From an uncultured Gammaproteobacteria bacterium (lineage in GTDB: Bacteria > Patescibacteriota > Patescibacteriia > UBA2196 > GWA2-42-15), in assembly GCA_964628705.1 (NCBI GenBank), contig CAZVLW010000001.1, forward strand, positions 3,298 to 39,061: a DNA stretch of 35,764 bases, in the 5' to 3' direction. The notes below the pieces were generated by a model. The model searched no databases. It had not been told where the DNA came from and saw nothing but the letters and a program-made list of their open reading frames with translations. The translations under genes were made by a program, and so were the position numbers. Below are positions 23,013 through 35,764 of this stretch, piece by piece. Each line of letters starts with the position of its first letter. Position 1 is the stretch's first letter.

Positions 23013-25259
23013 ATGAAAAAATTAGTCATTGTAGAATCTCCAACCAAAGCCAAAACTATATCTAAATTTTTAGATAAAAATTATAAGATTATGTCATCTT
23101 ATGGTCACTTACGCGATTTACCCAAAAAAGATTTGGGTGTTGATGTGGAGCATAATTTTAAGCCCAAATATGTAGTAGCAGATGATAAAAAAGCGGTTAT
23201 TGATGAATTGTATAAAGCAGCCCAAAAATCAAATATGGTCTATTTTGCGACTGATGAGGACCGTGAAGGTGAAGCTATTTCATGGCATTTACTTTATCTG
23301 CTCTCTCAAAAACAAAAAGATATTCAACATAAAAGAATTGTATTTCATGAAATTACTAAAGATGCCATACTGGAAGCCCTTAAAAGCCCGAGGGAAATTG
23401 ATAAAAATTTGGTTGACGCCCAGCAAGCCAGAAGAATATTGGACCGCTTGGTGGGTTATAAATTGTCACCTTTTTTATGGAAAAAAGTATCTAAAGGCTT
23501 ATCAGCTGGACGCGTGCAATCTGTAGCTGTAAGATTAATAGTTGAACGTGAACGTGAAATACAAAAATTCAAGCCAGAAGAGTACTGGGATATAGAAGCA
23601 ACTTTAGAAAATCAACACAAACAAGAGTTTAACGCCAAATTGATTAAAATAGTTGATAAAAAATTGGAAAAATTTGATTTAAAAAACCAAAGGCAAGTAA
23701 ATGGCATTGTTGAAGATTTAGAAAAACAAAATTATCAAGTGAGCAAGATTGAAACTAAACAAACTCCTAAAAAGCCGCAGCCACCTTTTACCACTTCCAG
23801 CTTACAGCAAGAAGCGCACAATAAACTTGGTTTTTCATCAAAACAAACCATGTATCTGGCTCAGAACTTGTACGAAGGTATCAAGCTGGGCAAAGAACAG
23901 GTGGGTTTGATTACTTATATGCGTACTGATTCTCTAAACTTATCATCCAATTTCACAACTCAAGCACACAGCTACATACAAGACGAGTTTGGTCATAAGT
24001 ATCTACCTAAACAAGTTAATAAATACAGCACTAAATCAAAGACAGCCCAAGAGGCACATGAAGCTATTCGTCCAACTGATCTATCCCGTGCGCCTGAAGA
24101 AATAAAAAACTATCTAAATGACAAACAATATAAACTATATGACTTAATCTGGAAAAGGGCGCTGGCCTCTCAAATGCAAGCGGCTAAAATAAATAAAACC
24201 AGCATAGATATAGCGGCTGGCAAATATTTATTAAGGGCTAATGGCTCACAAATATCTTTTGATGGATGGCTTAAGGTATATCCCGGAATTACTAAAGAAA
24301 ATATTTTGCCCCAAATAAAACAAGCTGAGAAGTTCGGCTTAAAAGAACTCAAACCAACACAACACTTCACTGAACCTCCACCAAGATACAATGATGCCAG
24401 TTTGGTTAAAAAACTTGAAGAGTTGGGTATTGGACGGCCTTCAACTTATGCTCCTATTATTTCAACTATCCAACAGAGAAATTATATCAAACGTGAGTCA
24501 GCTAAATTTATTCCCCAAGATATTTCATTTGTTGTAGTTGATCTGCTTAAAGACCACTTCCCTAAAATAGTTGATTATAAATTTACCGCCAATATGGAGG
24601 ATGACTTGGATAAAATCGCTGGAGGCAAAAAAAAATGGCAGCCAATTATTAAAAAGTTTTATTCACCTTTTATAAAAAATCTTGAGCAAAAATACGAACA
24701 AATTAAAAAACAAGATTTAATCACCGAAAAAAGCTCTGAGGTGTGTGATAAGTGTGGTAAGCCGATGGTAGTTAAAACTAGCCGCTATGGTAGATTTTTA
24801 GCTTGCAGTGGTTTCCCCAAGTGTCGCAACACTAAACAAATCGCTAAAATCAATAAAGAAAATGAGGTAAATGATGTAGAGGTTAAAGAAAAAGAGGAGC
24901 CGGAAAAAACTGATTTGGAATGTGAAAAGTGTGGCTCTCCAATGGTTATCCGCCATGGCCGTTTTGGTAAATTTTACGCTTGTAGTAATTTTCCAAAGTG
25001 CAAAAACACCAAACCTTTAGATCAAGATACTGGGATTAACTGCCCTCAATGTGGCAATGGTTCTATTGTGGCTAAAAAAACACGCTCTAAAAAAACTTTT
25101 TATGCTTGTGATAATTACCCTAAATGTAAATATGCACTTTGGGCTAAGCCGACTGGTAATAATTGCCCAAAATGTGAAAGTTTAATGATCAATGCGGGCA
25201 AGGATAAAGAAAAATGTTCAAATCAAAAATGTAAGCACACTCAGGAGGTAGAGAAATAA
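23013..25259 (+). CDS. topA: DNA topoisomerase I with four C-terminal zinc ribbons
   Basis: TOPRIM (LVIVESPTKAKTI, DEDREGE), catalytic Tyr context ITYMRTDS, and four Cx2C...Cx2-5C modules. Confidence 0.95.
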   Translation: MKKLVIVESPTKAKTISKFLDKNYKIMSSYGHLRDLPKKDLGVDVEHNFKPKYVVADDKKAVIDELYKAAQKSNMVYFATDEDREGEAISWHLLYLLSQKQKDIQHKRIVFHEITKDAILEALKSPREIDKNLVDAQQARRILDRLVGYKLSPFLWKKVSKGLSAGRVQSVAVRLIVEREREIQKFKPEEYWDIEATLENQHKQEFNAKLIKIVDKKLEKFDLKNQRQVNGIVEDLEKQNYQVSKIETKQTPKKPQPPFTTSSLQQEAHNKLGFSSKQTMYLAQNLYEGIKLGKEQVGLITYMRTDSLNLSSNFTTQAHSYIQDEFGHKYLPKQVNKYSTKSKTAQEAHEAIRPTDLSRAPEEIKNYLNDKQYKLYDLIWKRALASQMQAAKINKTSIDIAAGKYLLRANGSQISFDGWLKVYPGITKENILPQIKQAEKFGLKELKPTQHFTEPPPRYNDASLVKKLEELGIGRPSTYAPIISTIQQRNYIKRESAKFIPQDISFVVVDLLKDHFPKIVDYKFTANMEDDLDKIAGGKKKWQPIIKKFYSPFIKNLEQKYEQIKKQDLITEKSSEVCDKCGKPMVVKTSRYGRFLACSGFPKCRNTKQIAKINKENEVNDVEVKEKEEPEKTDLECEKCGSPMVIRHGRFGKFYACSNFPKCKNTKPLDQDTGINCPQCGNGSIVAKKTRSKKTFYACDNYPKCKYALWAKPTGNNCPKCESLMINAGKDKEKCSNQKCKHTQEVEK

Positions 25260-25316
25260 CTGGCAAAAGGAAATATATATTTTAAATTTGAATTTTAAAA
25301 TTTAGGTTTTGATATT

Positions 25317-25350
25317 AAAAAACAGTTTTGTCAAATACAAAGCTGTTTTT
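25317..25350. terminator. Intrinsic terminator after topA (usable in both directions)
   Basis: AACAGTTTTGT-CAAAT-ACAAAGCTGTT forms an 11-bp stem with one G.T, flanked by A and T runs. Confidence 0.6.
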
Positions 25351-25415
25351 AAATTGATTGCTTGCCACCCCACTTCAACGAAATCAGCCACTAACTACCC
25401 TGATTTAACCGAATC

Positions 25416-25767
25416 AGCTACCTTCAGCCAAAGCTGGATAAAAGAAGTAGAGGCGAGCGCTTTCTACCCGGCTTTAGCCGAGGGTTTAAGAGCTTTAGCT
25501 CAATTACTGCGCACTCAAGTGTAGCTACCTTCAGCCAAAGCTGGATAAAAGAAATAGAGGCCTACCCGGCTTTAGCCGAGGGTCTAAGAGCTTTAGCTTT
25601 ATGATGATACTCAAACATAATTACCTCCAGCTAAAGCTGGGTAGAAGAAATAGAGGCGAGCGCTTTCTACCCGGCTTTAGCCGAGGGTTTAAGAGCTTTA
25701 GCTCAATTGAGCTCGATTACTATGCACTCAAGTGCAGCTACCTTCAGCTAAAGCTGAGTGGAAGAAA
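25416..25767 (+). repeat. Tandem array (3 full units plus 1 partial) of a ~100-113-nt GC-rich multi-hairpin module
   Basis: Units start at 25416, 25523, ~25623 and 25736. Each carries the hairpins (U)UCAGC-YAAA-GCUGR, GUAGAG..UUCUAC, CGGC-UUUA-GCCG and GAGC-UUUA-GCUY. Wobble pairs are valid only in plus sense. Confidence 0.85.
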
Positions 25768-25825: not shown

Positions 25826-25854
25826 TTGATTTTTTTAAAAAAAATAAGTAAAAT
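25826..25854 (+). promoter_or_regulatory. Candidate promoter TTGATT-17-TAAAAT for rel
   Basis: Hexamers at 25826-25831 and 25849-25854. The context is AT-rich, so support is modest. Confidence 0.3.
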
Positions 25855-25934: not shown

Positions 25935-27404
25935 ATGACATTAGATAGAATACTGGAGGTTATTCACCACAATCACCCCCAAGCTGATACCACCATGGTT
26001 GAGCTGGCTTTTGAGCTGGCTGATAAGGCGCACAAGGGACAAAAAAGATTGAGTGGTGAAGATTACATCCAGCATTCGCTTGAAACAGCTTATGAGTTAG
26101 CACAAATGGATATAGATATTCCTACTGTGATTGCCGGTTTGTTACATGATGTTCCAGAAGATACCTATATCAGCCTGGAGGAAATTGAAAAAGATTTTGG
26201 TAAAGAGGTGGCTGGTTTAGTTGAAGGTATTACTAAACTGGGAACTATTAAATATCGGGGATTGGAAAGATACGCGGAAAACCTAAGAAAGATGTTTGTA
26301 GCTATGGCTGAGGATGTGCGGGTGATTTTTATTAAATTTGCTGATCGTATACACAATTTAAAAACTCTTTACGCACTGCGTCCAGTAAAACAACAACGGA
26401 TTGCCAAGGAAAGCTTAGAGATTTACGCCCCCATTGCCAATCGGCTTGGTATGAGCGAATTACAGGGAGAAATGGAAGATTTGGCTTTCCCTTATGTTTA
26501 TCCTGAAGAACATAAATGGGTAGAAAAAATTTCAAAGAAAAAATTTGAAACACGAAAACGGGATACTAACAAAATGATTAGGCGCGTTAAACAAGAACTT
26601 AGCAAAAATGATATCAAACCAATTAATATTTATGGCAGAGCCAAAAGATATTATTCACTGTATAAGAAACTGTTGCGTAAAGATATGGATATTGACCGTA
26701 TTTATGATATTGTAGCTTTACGTATCATTCTTAAAAATATAGATGAATGTTACCGTACACTTGGCTTAATTCATTCTTTCTGCAAACCAATGAAAGGTAG
26801 AATTAAAGATTATATTTCACAACCCAAACCCAATGGCTACCGCTCACTGCACACTACTGTTTATGCTGACAATAAAATTGTAGAATTCCAAATCAGAACT
26901 GAGGAAATGGAAGAAGAGGCAGAGTGGGGTATTGCAGCCCATTGGTCCTTTAAAGAAAGCTCTACTGGAAGCAAAACAAAGATCCCAGTAGATAAAGAAA
27001 AATTGAAATGGATCAGAACCTTAATTGACGAAGGCAGTCATAATTACCACCCAGAAGAGTATATTGATAAAATAAAAACGGATTTCTTTAAAAATAGGAT
27101 TTTTGTGTTTACCCCCAAGGGGGATGTAATTGATCTACCCGAAGGAGCTGTGCCAATTGATTTTGCTTATCATATCCATACTTTTATTGGCAATCATGCG
27201 GCTGGTGCCAAAATTAACGGCCACATTGCAAATTTAGAAAAAGAGCTCAAAAGCGGAGATATGGTGGAGATTATTGTTGATAAAAAAAGAACCAAACCAT
27301 CCAGACAATGGCTGGATATTGTGCAAACAAATTTAGCCAGAGATAAAATAAAACAGTCACTCAAACAGACTGATATTGGCAGAATATTTAAGATATTTAG
27401 GTAA
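25935..27404 (+). CDS. rel: Short bifunctional RelA/SpoT homolog (HD hydrolase + synthetase + TGS, no C-terminal ACT/RRM region)
   Basis: The HD motif is LLHDVPEDT. The synthetase motifs are RIKDYISQPKPNGYRSLHTTV and EFQIRTEEM. The TGS motif is VFTPKGDVIDLPEGAVPIDFAYHIH. The protein ends about 60 aa after TGS. Confidence 0.88.
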   Translation: MTLDRILEVIHHNHPQADTTMVELAFELADKAHKGQKRLSGEDYIQHSLETAYELAQMDIDIPTVIAGLLHDVPEDTYISLEEIEKDFGKEVAGLVEGITKLGTIKYRGLERYAENLRKMFVAMAEDVRVIFIKFADRIHNLKTLYALRPVKQQRIAKESLEIYAPIANRLGMSELQGEMEDLAFPYVYPEEHKWVEKISKKKFETRKRDTNKMIRRVKQELSKNDIKPINIYGRAKRYYSLYKKLLRKDMDIDRIYDIVALRIILKNIDECYRTLGLIHSFCKPMKGRIKDYISQPKPNGYRSLHTTVYADNKIVEFQIRTEEMEEEAEWGIAAHWSFKESSTGSKTKIPVDKEKLKWIRTLIDEGSHNYHPEEYIDKIKTDFFKNRIFVFTPKGDVIDLPEGAVPIDFAYHIHTFIGNHAAGAKINGHIANLEKELKSGDMVEIIVDKKRTKPSRQWLDIVQTNLARDKIKQSLKQTDIGRIFKIFR

Positions 27405-32258: not shown

Positions 32259-34040
32259 TTATTTCTCTGCCCAAAAGATAAGATTGGCTGATTTTACACC
32301 ACTAACTAAATAACTGGTTGGCACTTGAAGCGAAAGAATATAATCTTGACTTTGCAGAGCTGGTAATTCATCGCCAAAAGAAGCCCATGGGTGAGTATTA
32401 ATAGTTAAGTTATTTTTAAACAAATCATCTCCATTTAAGGTGGCTGAAAGGGTAACCTGATTTGAACTTTGATTGCTTAACTCTATACTGGCTGTAGCTA
32501 TATCACCAGAAGATAGTTGACCAAAATTGATATGACTTTTGTTGACTAATAAAGCTATACTATCCCCCGCTACATCACCGTTTTGTGATATGATTACTTC
32601 GGCTTGCAGATTAATGGGTTCACTTGAGAGACTACCTATATGTAAGGTAACTTGATTGCTTCTGACATACCCCGGCATATCTAAATATGCGCGGTGAAGG
32701 CCGTTTTGATCAAAGCTTAATTGCAGCTGGCCCAAATTGTCAGTTGTCTTTAAATCTTCATCCAACATAATTTCAGCTTGGTTAAAATTCTGCCAACTCC
32801 CGTCTTGATAATATTCAGCGGTTAAAGTGACGGGTTGATTGATTTTTAGGGTTGTTTTATCTGCTCTAAGTCGAGTCGGCTGCCAACCCCATTCGCCAAA
32901 ATACCACAGCAATTTGTCATCTGAATTTAGAGAATAATCAGCCGCTCCAACTGAGGGTGAATTAAAATTGACAAAATACATCCAGCCAGTATTACCGCTT
33001 GCTGTATGATTTTTGATAGATGATAAATATGGGCCAAAATCAGTTTTTTCTATAGTATAATTATATCCGCACTCATTGGCTGCTTGTTCAATGGCAGACA
33101 GGGCTGTGTCTGCCTCTGATAGCTCAATCTCACAAATAGTTTGGCTTGGCCCCTCAATGCGTAAATGAATATCTAAATTGTGACTGTCTTCAAAATAGTC
33201 TAGCGGCAAAGTTTGACTACTTAAAGCCAAGGACGCGAAGCTACTCATGGCTTTATTATTGAAATTTGGGTCACTCTCGGGGTCTACCCACCAAAAGCCG
33301 CCATCTGCATCCTGTAGAGAGTTGATAAAATCTATCGGACTTTGGTTTTGACTCCAAGAGCTAAGATCATATTCGGCTTTATTTAAAGCTAAAACCACCC
33401 AAGCAGTAGAGCCGCTATCAGAGTCACCAGCTTGGCTAAATGGGAAACCTCCATCACTATTTTGAAGACTGGCTAAATAATCAAAAGCATTTTGAATGGC
33501 TTGGCTTTGCACAGATACCCCACTTTCCAAAAGTGCCATTATAGCGGCTGCCGTATCATTGCTATCACTTGCGCCGCCCACTTGATAACCCCAGCCTCCA
33601 TCATTATTTTGGTGACTTAAAATATAATCTTGAATATTGTGAAGCATTTGGGTATCATTTTGATTGGCTGAATGGAAGGCCAAGAGTGACCAAAAATCAT
33701 CGTTGATTAAGTCTTTTTCACCCATTTGTCCGTCTTGATAATAAGTTTTGAGTTTTTTAAGATAGTCAATATTACCAAAGGTATGGGGATTTTTGCCAGC
33801 CGCTACGGTTGCCAAGATAATTTTGGCATAATCGGTAGCCAGCTGTCCATTCACTGACTTGATGTGGTCTAAATCTAAATCATCTTCACCCAAAGCAAGT
33901 AGGGCTTGCGTGGTCCATGCGTCTTGAGGTTGTTTTTTAAGATAATCAACAGCTTGGTTAATATCTGCCTGAGAATAGAAGGGTAAACTCAGCATAAGCG
34001 CAAGGGCTAAAAAGAAAAAAAACTTTTTTATTTGAAACAT
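32259..34040 (-). CDS. Secreted transcobalamin-like protein: alpha/alpha-toroid (prenyltransferase-like) repeats + DUF4430-like domain + Ig-like C-terminus
   Basis: Signal peptide ending FYSQA. The toroid repeats read QNNDGGWGYQVGGASDSNDTAAAIMAL, QNSDGGFPFSQAGDSDSGSTAWVVLAL and QDADGGFWW. The DUF4430-like block reads HLRIEGPSQTICE...FGPYLSSI...GWMYFVNFNSPSVGAADYSLNSDDKLLWYFG. Confidence 0.7.
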   Translation of the reverse strand: MFQIKKFFFFLALALMLSLPFYSQADINQAVDYLKKQPQDAWTTQALLALGEDDLDLDHIKSVNGQLATDYAKIILATVAAGKNPHTFGNIDYLKKLKTYYQDGQMGEKDLINDDFWSLLAFHSANQNDTQMLHNIQDYILSHQNNDGGWGYQVGGASDSNDTAAAIMALLESGVSVQSQAIQNAFDYLASLQNSDGGFPFSQAGDSDSGSTAWVVLALNKAEYDLSSWSQNQSPIDFINSLQDADGGFWWVDPESDPNFNNKAMSSFASLALSSQTLPLDYFEDSHNLDIHLRIEGPSQTICEIELSEADTALSAIEQAANECGYNYTIEKTDFGPYLSSIKNHTASGNTGWMYFVNFNSPSVGAADYSLNSDDKLLWYFGEWGWQPTRLRADKTTLKINQPVTLTAEYYQDGSWQNFNQAEIMLDEDLKTTDNLGQLQLSFDQNGLHRAYLDMPGYVRSNQVTLHIGSLSSEPINLQAEVIISQNGDVAGDSIALLVNKSHINFGQLSSGDIATASIELSNQSSNQVTLSATLNGDDLFKNNLTINTHPWASFGDELPALQSQDYILSLQVPTSYLVSGVKSANLIFWAEK

Positions 34041-34065: not shown

Positions 34066-34155
34066 TGTGAGTGGATAATTTTTGCAATATACTACAAAAA
34101 CTAACCTTCACAAACTCTTTACCTCGAAGAGTTAACGAATAATTAAATTTTAATT

Positions 34156-34240
34156 GACGCGACCTGGCTTATCCCAAAATTGGGAATCACAGTTGCGGGA
34201 CAGCGGAGGAGTTGCCTATATTGGCGCACCTCGCTTCGGA
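34156..34240 (-). promoter_or_regulatory. Cobalamin-riboswitch-like aptamer (non-canonical, short)
   Basis: GCUGUCCCGCAACUGUGAU (reverse complement of 34186-34204) resembles the cobalamin core GC.GCCCCCGC.ACUGU. The hairpin UCCCAAUUUUGGGA follows. AAGCCAGG (reverse complement of 34163-34170) resembles the 5' half of the B12 box. The downstream gene is a DUF4430-type protein. Confidence 0.5.
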
Positions 34241-34268
34241 CAATTAAAACTTTTTGTAAAGTAAATTT

Positions 34269-34977: not shown

Positions 34978-35764
34978 TTATTGCTGAGTGAAATAAACAG
35001 GTATTTCTAAAGCATTGTCATTTTGCGGCAAACCTGAAGGGTTGGCCTTTTGTAAAATCAAAGAACCTCTATTACTCACAAAAGTGTCAACTGAAAAAAT
35101 TAAAGTGGCGCTGAAATCAACAAACTCTTCGGTCATCCATTCATCCTCGGCCTCAGCATAACCTTCAGCAATGATTTTACCATCCCAATCTGTTAAAATT
35201 ACAGGGAAGGTTGCCTCAAAAAACCAATTTCCTTTAGCTTGTCCCGTGACTTGAAGAGGACTGGTAATTTTTTGATTGGGCTTTGGGTTATCAAGTTGAA
35301 TAAGATCTAAAAGCTCATTCGTATTACCTATATTTTCAGTAAAAGTTTTGCCATCAGGTGTGGAACATTGACGCGGATAGCTCTCCATAACTGTGTAACC
35401 TGCTTCAATACACTCTTTAAAAGAAGAGATATCTAAAAAATCATCATCGGGGATATTATCATCTTGGCAAATTATCTGCCAATTTTTTAGTCGTGAGAAT
35501 TGCTGGCATTGTTGGCTCAATAAATCTGGCGAAATAACTGGACATTTGGCTACTTCTTCATTAATACTATTATAATAAATGGAACCACCCCCATCAAGCT
35601 GACTATCTACTTTGATATATTTATCATTGATAGAAACTTGAGCGACGTTTTGCTTAGAGCAATAGCTTTGCGCTGTTGAGCTTAAATCCGAAGCTAAATC
35701 GCCATCTTGGCTAGATGGTATAAAATAAGCCACAACCGACCCTAAAACCAATAATACAGCTACC
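34978..35764 (-). CDS. Gmad2 Ig-like domain protein, 5' end outside the window
   Basis: The C-terminal ITSPLQVTGQAKGNWFFEATFPVILTDWDGKIIAEGYAEAEDEWMTEEFVDFSATL matches the Gmad2 pattern. The frame stays open to the window edge through a TM-like segment. Confidence 0.7.
   Translation of the reverse strand, partial: VAVLLVLGSVVAYFIPSSQDGDLASDLSSTAQSYCSKQNVAQVSINDKYIKVDSQLDGGGSIYYNSINEEVAKCPVISPDLLSQQCQQFSRLKNWQIICQDDNIPDDDFLDISSFKECIEAGYTVMESYPRQCSTPDGKTFTENIGNTNELLDLIQLDNPKPNQKITSPLQVTGQAKGNWFFEATFPVILTDWDGKIIAEGYAEAEDEWMTEEFVDFSATLIFSVDTFVSNRGSLILQKANPSGLPQNDNALEIPVYFTQQ

Follow-up and report, generated by a model that had tools for sequence, protein, structure and literature searches.

The topA–rel locus

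The stretch of DNA analysed here, referred to as the window, is 35,764 nt long and comes from an assembly labelled as an uncultured Gammaproteobacteria bacterium (GenBank acc. no. GCA_964628705.1, contig CAZVLW010000001.1, positions 3,298 to 39,061). It covers only a part of the host genome, and the homologs of its Rel protein place the organism in Patescibacteria near Kuenenbacteria, with the best non-self match showing 79% identity. In the window, topA and rel are separated by a spacer of 675 bp, which holds an array of G+C-rich palindromic repeats, the subject of this work, resembling the repetitive extragenic palindromic (REP) sequences of other bacteria. The G+C content is 0.45–0.48 in the array, 0.25–0.31 in its flanks and 0.358 across the whole window.

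The original prediction, drawn from the letters of the sequence alone, had placed a repeat array between topA and rel, and this is borne out by a repeat search of the window, by counts in shuffled sequences and by the Pfam matches of the flanking genes (Table 1). The search returned an 87-nt repeat pair with 94% identity (25419–25505 and 25622–25708), a 37-nt repeat present three times with 97–100% identity (starting at 25464, 25562, and 25667), a 61-nt pair with 84% identity (starting at 25494 and 25707), and 24-nt inverted repeats, 79–83% complementary, found both inside the units and between them. The core 22-mer CTACCCGGCTTTAGCCGAGGGT occurs three times against 0.00 expected from shuffles, and the arm motif seven times over both strands against 0.04 expected; given these identities and counts, the repeat is real and far above chance. 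The array was unreported by Tandem Repeats Finder. No reading frame is open across the whole of it, and the two short open reading frames (ORFs) overlying it gave no Pfam match. The earlier statement that no frame is maintained across the units therefore holds, while the accompanying one, that the unit lengths are never multiples of three, does not, since the periods of 96, 105, and 117 nt are such multiples, the outcome depending on the landmark chosen. Rfam searches, both at the gathering thresholds and with E values of up to 10, yielded nothing but noise for the array region; the original prediction had likewise recognised no known Rfam family there.

Structure of the array

The array consists of seven copies of a 47-nt module of two hairpins, arranged in the orientations − + − + − + − and spanning positions 25397–25763. 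A covariance model called R1, built from 74 module copies of other genomes and run on the whole window with the filters off, gave exactly seven matches, every one within this interval and on alternating strands. The core of the module, TTCTACCCRGCTTTAGCYGAGGGT, precedes a hairpin whose stem varies and whose loop is TTTA. Hairpin A is composed of 5'-TTCTACC, one strand of a 4-bp stem, TTTA, the other strand of the stem, AG, and GGT; hairpin B comes next and has a freely varying stem and again a TTTA loop. A solo copy is followed by three tandem head-to-head inverted dimers of the A-B-B'-A' type (25462–25550, 25560–25646, and 25665–25763), which are 87–99 nt long and resemble REPINs (REP doublets forming hairpins). 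Each unit of ca. 105 nt seen in the original prediction comprises the 24-nt module TTCTACCCGGCTTTAGCCGAGGGT and an inverted, more degenerate copy of it; the natural unit is, however, the inverted dimer, so that the phase of the units has to be shifted, and the R1 match of copy 1 moves the start of the array from 25416 to about 25397.

Since the 87-nt repeat spans a non-REP linker together with a module, the likeliest way for the array to have grown is that a dimer, together with its linker, was duplicated locally in tandem. Just 5' of copy 1 (25367–25421) there is also a 25-nt direct repeat with 72% identity (ACCCCACTTCAACGAAATCAGCCAC and ACCCTGATTTAACCGAATCAGCTAC). It may be a further decayed remnant resembling hairpin B, in which case the array would reach back to ca. 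25367.

Table 1. Features of the topA–rel region (positions in the window)
Feature	Position	Strand	Remarks
topA (DNA topoisomerase I)	23013..25259	+	Upstream flanking gene, outside the element; Pfam Toprim, Topoisom_bac, Zn_ribbon_Top1
Terminator-like hairpin 3' of topA, AAAAACAGTTTTGT...ACAAAGCTGTTTTT	25314..25354	+	Inverted repeat, 18-nt arms, 89% complementary; comparable hairpin after topA in relatives; putative function
REP copy 1, solo, degenerate	25397..25443	-	R1 22.6 bits, E=0.0019; module A' TTTTATCCAGCTTTGGCTGAAGGT and hairpin CTGATT/AATCAG
Linker 1, AGAAGTAGAGGCGAGCGC	25444..25461		Homologous to linkers 2 and 3; inside the 87-nt repeat (94%)
REP copy 2	25462..25507	+	R1 55.2 bits, E=7.5e-11; consensus module A TTCTACCCGGCTTTAGCCGAGGGT and hairpin B GAGC-TTTA-GCTC
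REP copy 3, degenerate	25504..25550	-	R1 18.1 bits, E=0.019; with copy 2, inverted dimer 1
Linker 2	25551..25559		9-nt deletion relative to linkers 1 and 3
REP copy 4	25560..25605	+	R1 45.4 bits, E=1.3e-8; module A with 5' TT -> GC; G.T closing pair in hairpin B
REP copy 5, TTCTACCCAGCTTTAGCTGGAGGT	25599..25646	-	R1 29.4 bits, E=5.3e-5; with copy 4, inverted dimer 2
Linker 3, GAAATAGAGGCGAGCGCT	25647..25664		Inside the 87-nt repeat (94%)
REP copy 6	25665..25710	+	R1 55.3 bits, E=7e-11; consensus module A and hairpin B
REP copy 7	25718..25763	-	R1 27.4 bits, E=1.5e-4; TTCCACTCAGCTTTAGCTGAAGGT and hairpin GCACT-TGA-GTGC; with copy 6, inverted dimer 3
rel (bifunctional RelA/SpoT-type (p)ppGpp enzyme)	25935..27404	+	Downstream flanking gene, outside the element; Pfam HD_4, RelA_SpoT, TGS; homologs in Patescibacteria/Kuenenbacteria

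Dispersal of the module in other genomes

The GTDB representative genomes, one per species, were scanned with the degenerate 20-mer TAYCCRGCTTTRGCYGARGG, for which ca. 35 chance matches would be expected over 596 Gb by our own estimate. At least 118 loci were matched, with 138 matches among those listed. Conserved context outside the pattern accompanies 124 of the 138 (TTC before it in 121 and T after it in 121); the other 14 lack it and, situated within long ORFs (median 342 aa), appear to be chance matches. The 124 true matches are spread over 104 loci and both strands, on up to eight or more contigs per metagenome-assembled genome (MAG) among the matches listed; they are mostly located outside long ORFs (the median stop-free stretch is 48 aa) and next to unrelated genes. 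R1 found 177 matches in 100 of the other loci, commonly as plus-then-minus dimers. Inverted dimers of ca. 100 nt are a common form of the family. In 22 plus-then-minus dimers the gaps cluster at 54–56 nt, many more dimers being detected by R1, and the dimers of the window, dimer 1 in particular with those from other MAGs, align end to end with the dimers of other loci.

The hosts of the module are mostly Patescibacteria MAGs, with labels including Paceibacteria, Parcubacteria, Moranbacteria, Falkowbacteria, and Saccharibacteria; further hosts are MAGs labelled Zixibacteria, Gemmatimonadota, WOR-3, and Gammaproteobacteria, some of them with ca. 50% G+C. A metagenome scan for the A-B junction specific to the window gave no match. 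The exact 24-mer is absent from IMG/VR, and blastn against the PLSDB plasmids and the INPHARED phages gave no match, so there is no sign of a phage or plasmid vehicle.

Several of these loci deserve a separate mention. The 24-nt core is found on many contigs of MAGs with ca. 50% G+C labelled Zixibacteria (loci L006, L037, L046, L063, L065, L091, and L111) and Gemmatimonadota (L042, L066, L076, L080, and L085), and there the second hairpin after the core is often different. Either the element passes between phyla, or the binning or labelling cannot be relied on for these MAGs, all labelled as groups outside the candidate phyla radiation (CPR). At L049 (3522–3616) three direct copies of module A with a period of 36 nt and no hairpin B precede a normal A+B copy and an inverted copy, a style of local amplification differing from that of the window array. 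Variant modules in L010, L052, L058, L093, L097, L110, and L105 (4459–4505) keep TTCTACC...TTTA...AGGGT and have the inner 4-bp stem exchanged, for GCAC/GTGC or, in L105, GGCGC/GCGCA; in the JAUVIV and JAUWAR MAGs variant modules form tight dimers lying 4–6 nt apart. Moreover, 24 of the 124 true matches overlap the end of a stop-free stretch of at least 100 aa, i.e., the repeats often lie on the 3' ends of genes.

Conservation of the hairpins

The variable pair of hairpin A is G-C in 64 copies, A-T in 55, G-T in five, and never A-C. Of 121 distinct copies of module A, 89 have a hairpin with a TTTA loop after them at a fixed offset, as compared with a rate of 0.4% in shuffles; among these hairpins 25 different 4-bp stems occur. 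Covariation was assessed on an alignment of 74 sequences, built from the copies sharing one offset between hairpins A and B. Paired cells make up 93.1% of it, against 20–40% when the partners are slid, and double-sided changes number 167, whereas shuffles give 46 and none of the 500 reaches the observed value; all seven pairs of hairpin B covary. The hairpins are thus those of a palindromic DNA element under selection, and the pairing-preserving variation, correctly noticed in the original prediction, belongs to the whole dispersed family and not to a local RNA. The individual variants it had listed (U.G replaced by C-G or U-A, the 9-nt deletion, and G-C changed to G.U in its second unit) are readable directly in the sequence.

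In hairpin A, G-T is present five times and A-C never, a hint that folding takes place on the CTAC strand; hairpin B has no such bias. When paired in the register of the family (stem, AG bulge, stem), the copies in minus orientation have T.G on the minus strand at their variant positions. Neither strand is favoured in the folding of the dimers.

Association with a RAYT-type transposase

At five loci (L075, L101, L034, L102, and L020) a gene of ca. 190 codons adjoins the module, and its flanks are inverted in four of the five. In L075 it is a 192-aa ORF (443–1018) bracketed by inverted modules with the CTAC/GTAG tags outermost, and its homologs, showing 50–54% identity, adjoin modules in four more MAGs. 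The ORF matches Pfam Y1_Tnp (25.6 bits, with a cutoff of 23) and NCBIfam REP_Tyr_transpos with E=3.7e-7, below the cutoff of that model; the value for the IS200 model is 0.059. A histidine-hydrophobic-histidine (HUH) motif, NHYHL, and a tyrosine motif, GYxxGN, are invariant among the homologs of this REP-associated tyrosine transposase (RAYT) type. At least 224 clusters of homologs are present in the protein database, the named ones mostly from Patescibacteria, and some were named "REP element-mobilizing transposase RayT" by JGI.

The AlphaFold model of the RAYT-type protein has a pLDDT (predicted local distance difference test) score of 88.8. Its best match among PDB folds is 4er8 (E=1e-7, target-normalised template modelling score 0.69), in which the REP-associated tyrosine transposase of E. 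coli is in complex with a REP hairpin, followed by the ISDra2 and IS608 transposases of the IS200/IS605 insertion sequences (IS) with E=2.5e-5. Neither the single sequence nor a profile found a match in PDB; 4er8 was reached by fold comparison only. The module is the cognate repeat of an HUH single-strand DNA transposase of the RAYT type, with one catalytic tyrosine (Y1), in these other genomes. It is worth adding that the RAYT ORFs of L075 (1001–1021) and L020 (6337–6357) run into the flanking REP, whose GTAG tag provides their stop codon, and end in ...PPSAKAG*, and the upstream ORF in L075 (396–411) likewise stops at the TAG of the TTTAG loop.

Absence of the module from related loci

Eight loci of relatives, with Rel identity of 74–79%, keep the order mur ligase–topA–rel–parB–parA. 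Their topA–rel spacers are 104, 140, or 309 bp long or hold two extra genes, and contain only a terminator-like hairpin and AT-rich sequence; no module was found in the 96.5 kb of these eight syntenic loci. At the related Moranbacteria locus L105 there is instead a dimer between dprA and topA. As the gene order is kept while the module is absent, the array is a lineage-specific insertion amplified locally, and not a conserved regulator of rel. The two extra genes, inserted between topA and rel in one relative (L125, 7091–10000, and L126), code for proteins of 210 and 389 aa without Pfam match, and the topA–rel spacer seems to accept insertions repeatedly.

Nature of the array

The array is very probably a REP/BIME-like cluster (BIME, bacterial interspersed mosaic element) of a RAYT-associated repeat family, i.e., a selfish palindromic DNA element rather than a novel regulatory RNA. 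A selfish REP/BIME-like repeat was among the options of the original prediction, and it is the one supported by the dispersal of the module on both strands and by the RAYT-type gene adjoining it in five MAGs. By analogy with TnpA-REP of E. coli and with IS200/IS605, the hairpins would form on single-stranded DNA, and the RAYT would bind a hairpin plus its 5' tag and then cut and rejoin the DNA, spreading the elements in trans. In the window, one dimer with its linker may have landed 3' of the topA terminator; its amplification would have followed, through tandem duplication at this site or through unequal recombination, one linker undergoing a deletion of 9 nt. If transcripts are affected, e.g., by 3' exonucleases being halted on the topA mRNA or by attenuation of read-through before rel, this would be a typical side effect of REPs and not the raison d'être of the array.

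Several observations weigh against this interpretation. The module is present at one site only in the window, and the RAYT gene was not found in these 35.7 kb, both within the part of the host genome covered. A seven-copy alternating cluster with tail-to-tail junctions occurs at none of the 118 other listed loci, and a scan of metagenome contigs with exact patterns for perfect tail-to-tail junctions gave no match. The plus-oriented copies have the consensus sequence and the minus-oriented ones are decayed, an asymmetry which the REP interpretation does not account for, and the energies of RNA folding summed per copy slightly favour the plus strand (−88.6 against −80.1 kcal/mol). At L102 the RAYT gene is flanked by direct, not inverted, copies. 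Finally, the canonical REP tag is GT[AG]G, located 5' of the hairpin foot on the folding strand (PMC3479197, PMC6006769), whereas here CTAC lies 5' of the hairpin, and on the complementary strand GTAG is found only 3' of it. We therefore do not class the element among the canonical GTAG REPs; some RAYT subclasses are known to have atypical REPs that lack GTAG (PMC6006769).

The main alternative put forward in the original prediction, a structured plus-strand RNA acting either as an array of small RNAs or as a tandem cis-regulatory leader controlling rel, is very improbable. The array does lie directly upstream of rel and is co-directional with both flanking genes, and its plus strand folds as RNA better than shuffles do (−141.6 kcal/mol, z = −5.8); the minus strand is, however, almost as stable (−139.2 kcal/mol, z = −4.7), as expected of a DNA palindrome, and the same near equality is seen in DNA folding (−63.5 kcal/mol for the plus and −62.5 kcal/mol for the minus strand). 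At a few local variants the plus strand has G.U pairs, and the summed energies given above are slightly better on it, but the claim that the wobble pairs are valid only in plus-sense RNA fails, because the two strands fold about equally and the U.G pairs depend on the register chosen. Secondary effects on transcripts are known for the REPs of other bacteria (PMC3733652). A cis-regulatory role finds no support in the relatives, which share the topA–rel–parB–parA order and entirely lack the module, and RNA readings in general are opposed by the occurrence of the module in both orientations, here and elsewhere, beside unrelated genes. Intergenic dispersal on both strands, which the original prediction had itself named as incompatible with these readings, is what is seen in other genomes. 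The lack of an Rfam match points the same way; moreover, the terminator-like hairpin separates topA from the array, and the sole promoter-like site near rel on the plus strand (25826–25854) is 3' of the array, consensus matches of this sort being weak evidence. The suggestion of an RNA repeat antitoxin, as in type III toxin–antitoxin systems, is extremely improbable: the likeness, a tandem non-coding repeat upstream of a gene, is superficial, the copies are of unequal length and alternating orientation, the module is also found dispersed beside unrelated genes, and the downstream gene codes for Rel/SpoT (HD_4, RelA_SpoT, TGS) and not for an endoribonuclease toxin of the ToxN/CptN/TenpN type.

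Another possibility, that the array is a miniature derivative of an active insertion sequence of the IS200/IS605 type (a palindrome-associated or miniature inverted-repeat transposable element, PATE or MITE) and not a REP served by a single-copy RAYT, is also very improbable. In its favour, the gene next to the module codes for a Y1 HUH enzyme whose next-best fold matches are the IS200/IS605 transposases, and the flanks at L102 are direct. An identical core in distant phyla also fits horizontal spread better than the vertical inheritance with which REPIN–RAYT systems are credited. The best fold match is, nevertheless, a RAYT, with an E value lower by more than two orders of magnitude, and REP_Tyr_transpos likewise outscores the IS200 model. 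Four of the five genes are accompanied by inverted identical repeats, an arrangement called a REPtron, whereas the ends of IS200/IS605 are distinct and directly oriented; there is no tnpB-like gene beside the L075 gene, and in the sample one transposase locus is seen per MAG, against many copies of the repeat.

A decayed coding repeat was also considered, as both arms, taken in the orientation of the module, translate to FYPALAEG and the length of the 9-nt deletion is divisible by three. It was rejected: no frame is open across the array, the short ORFs lack Pfam matches, the motif lies outside genes in most genomes, and differences consisting entirely of transitions are expected of a palindrome under hairpin selection.

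With the array assigned to DNA repeats of the REP/BIME type, one candidate for a novel RNA is removed, and a REP family with its RAYT is documented for Patescibacteria. The R1 model can be used to mask such elements in CPR genomes, so that they are not repeatedly mistaken for structured RNA. No published account of a REP family and RAYT in Patescibacteria/CPR was found within the reach of the literature searched. As a tentative possibility, one we would rather doubt than assume, the family may represent an undescribed REPIN–RAYT lineage, distinguished by the mirrored 5'-CTAC tag, the bipartite module of two hairpins and a 24-nt core nearly identical across Patescibacteria classes and several phyla. 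Such a lineage, if true, would imply that the element spreads horizontally or that its recognition site is unusually constrained, unlike the vertically inherited, species-specific REPINs described so far, and would mean that a REPIN–RAYT system is present in some of the smallest known bacterial genomes. The seven-copy cluster of the window might, besides, act on transcripts as a barrier separating topA from rel. The near identity of the core in distant lineages and the 5'-CTAC tag raise the question of substrate recognition and horizontal spread in this RAYT clade.

Other features of the window

An adenosylcobalamin (AdoCbl, B12) riboswitch (34105–34265, minus strand, 67.2 bits) is located upstream of a gene for a 593-aa protein (32259–34040, minus strand) comprising DUF4430 and a prenyltransferase-like alpha/alpha-toroid domain. 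We take this pair of domains to be reminiscent of B12-binding proteins of the transcobalamin type, and the protein may serve in B12 capture in a CPR bacterium. A gene for a PIN-domain protein (PF13470; 34552–34959, minus strand) adjoins a 257-aa ORF (34978–35751), and the two may form a putative toxin–antitoxin pair.

Comparison with known systems

The type III toxin–antitoxin systems share with the array a tandem non-coding repeat upstream of a gene; ToxI-like repeats are, however, direct and uniform in length and lie beside an endoribonuclease toxin, whereas here the copies alternate, the neighbour is rel, and the module is dispersed. With IS200/IS605 (IS608, ISDra2) the family has in common the enzyme superfamily, as reflected in the second-best fold match, and subterminal hairpins with a 5' guide tetranucleotide, recognised on single-stranded DNA. 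It differs from them in that their left and right ends are distinct, while at four of the five loci here the repeats flanking the gene are identical and inverted, and in the sample the repeats far outnumber the transposase genes.

The closest likeness is to the REP/BIME and REPIN–RAYT systems of E. coli and Pseudomonas (PMC3479197, PMC3116915, PMC3733652, PMC6006769), with which the family shares a short imperfect palindrome, whose bulge is conserved, as is the tag at the foot of the hairpin, many mostly intergenic copies in both orientations, and frequent inverted dimers with fixed spacing. As in BIMEs, the copies form a cluster of alternating orientation joined by linker motifs, represented here by the three homologous linkers. 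BIMEs of E. coli bind gyrase or IHF. As in a REPtron, an HUH/Y1 gene of ca. 190 codons lies, in other genomes, between inverted copies, and its product has the fold closest to 4er8. Besides the mirrored tag, the differences from classical REPs concern the module, which is bipartite, with a near-invariant hairpin A, a freely varying hairpin B and TTTA loops in both; the hosts, whose genomes are ultra-small and AT-rich; and the distribution, as a classical REP family is usually confined to one species or genus, whereas the 24-nt core is almost identical across many lineages of Patescibacteria and in MAGs labelled as other phyla.

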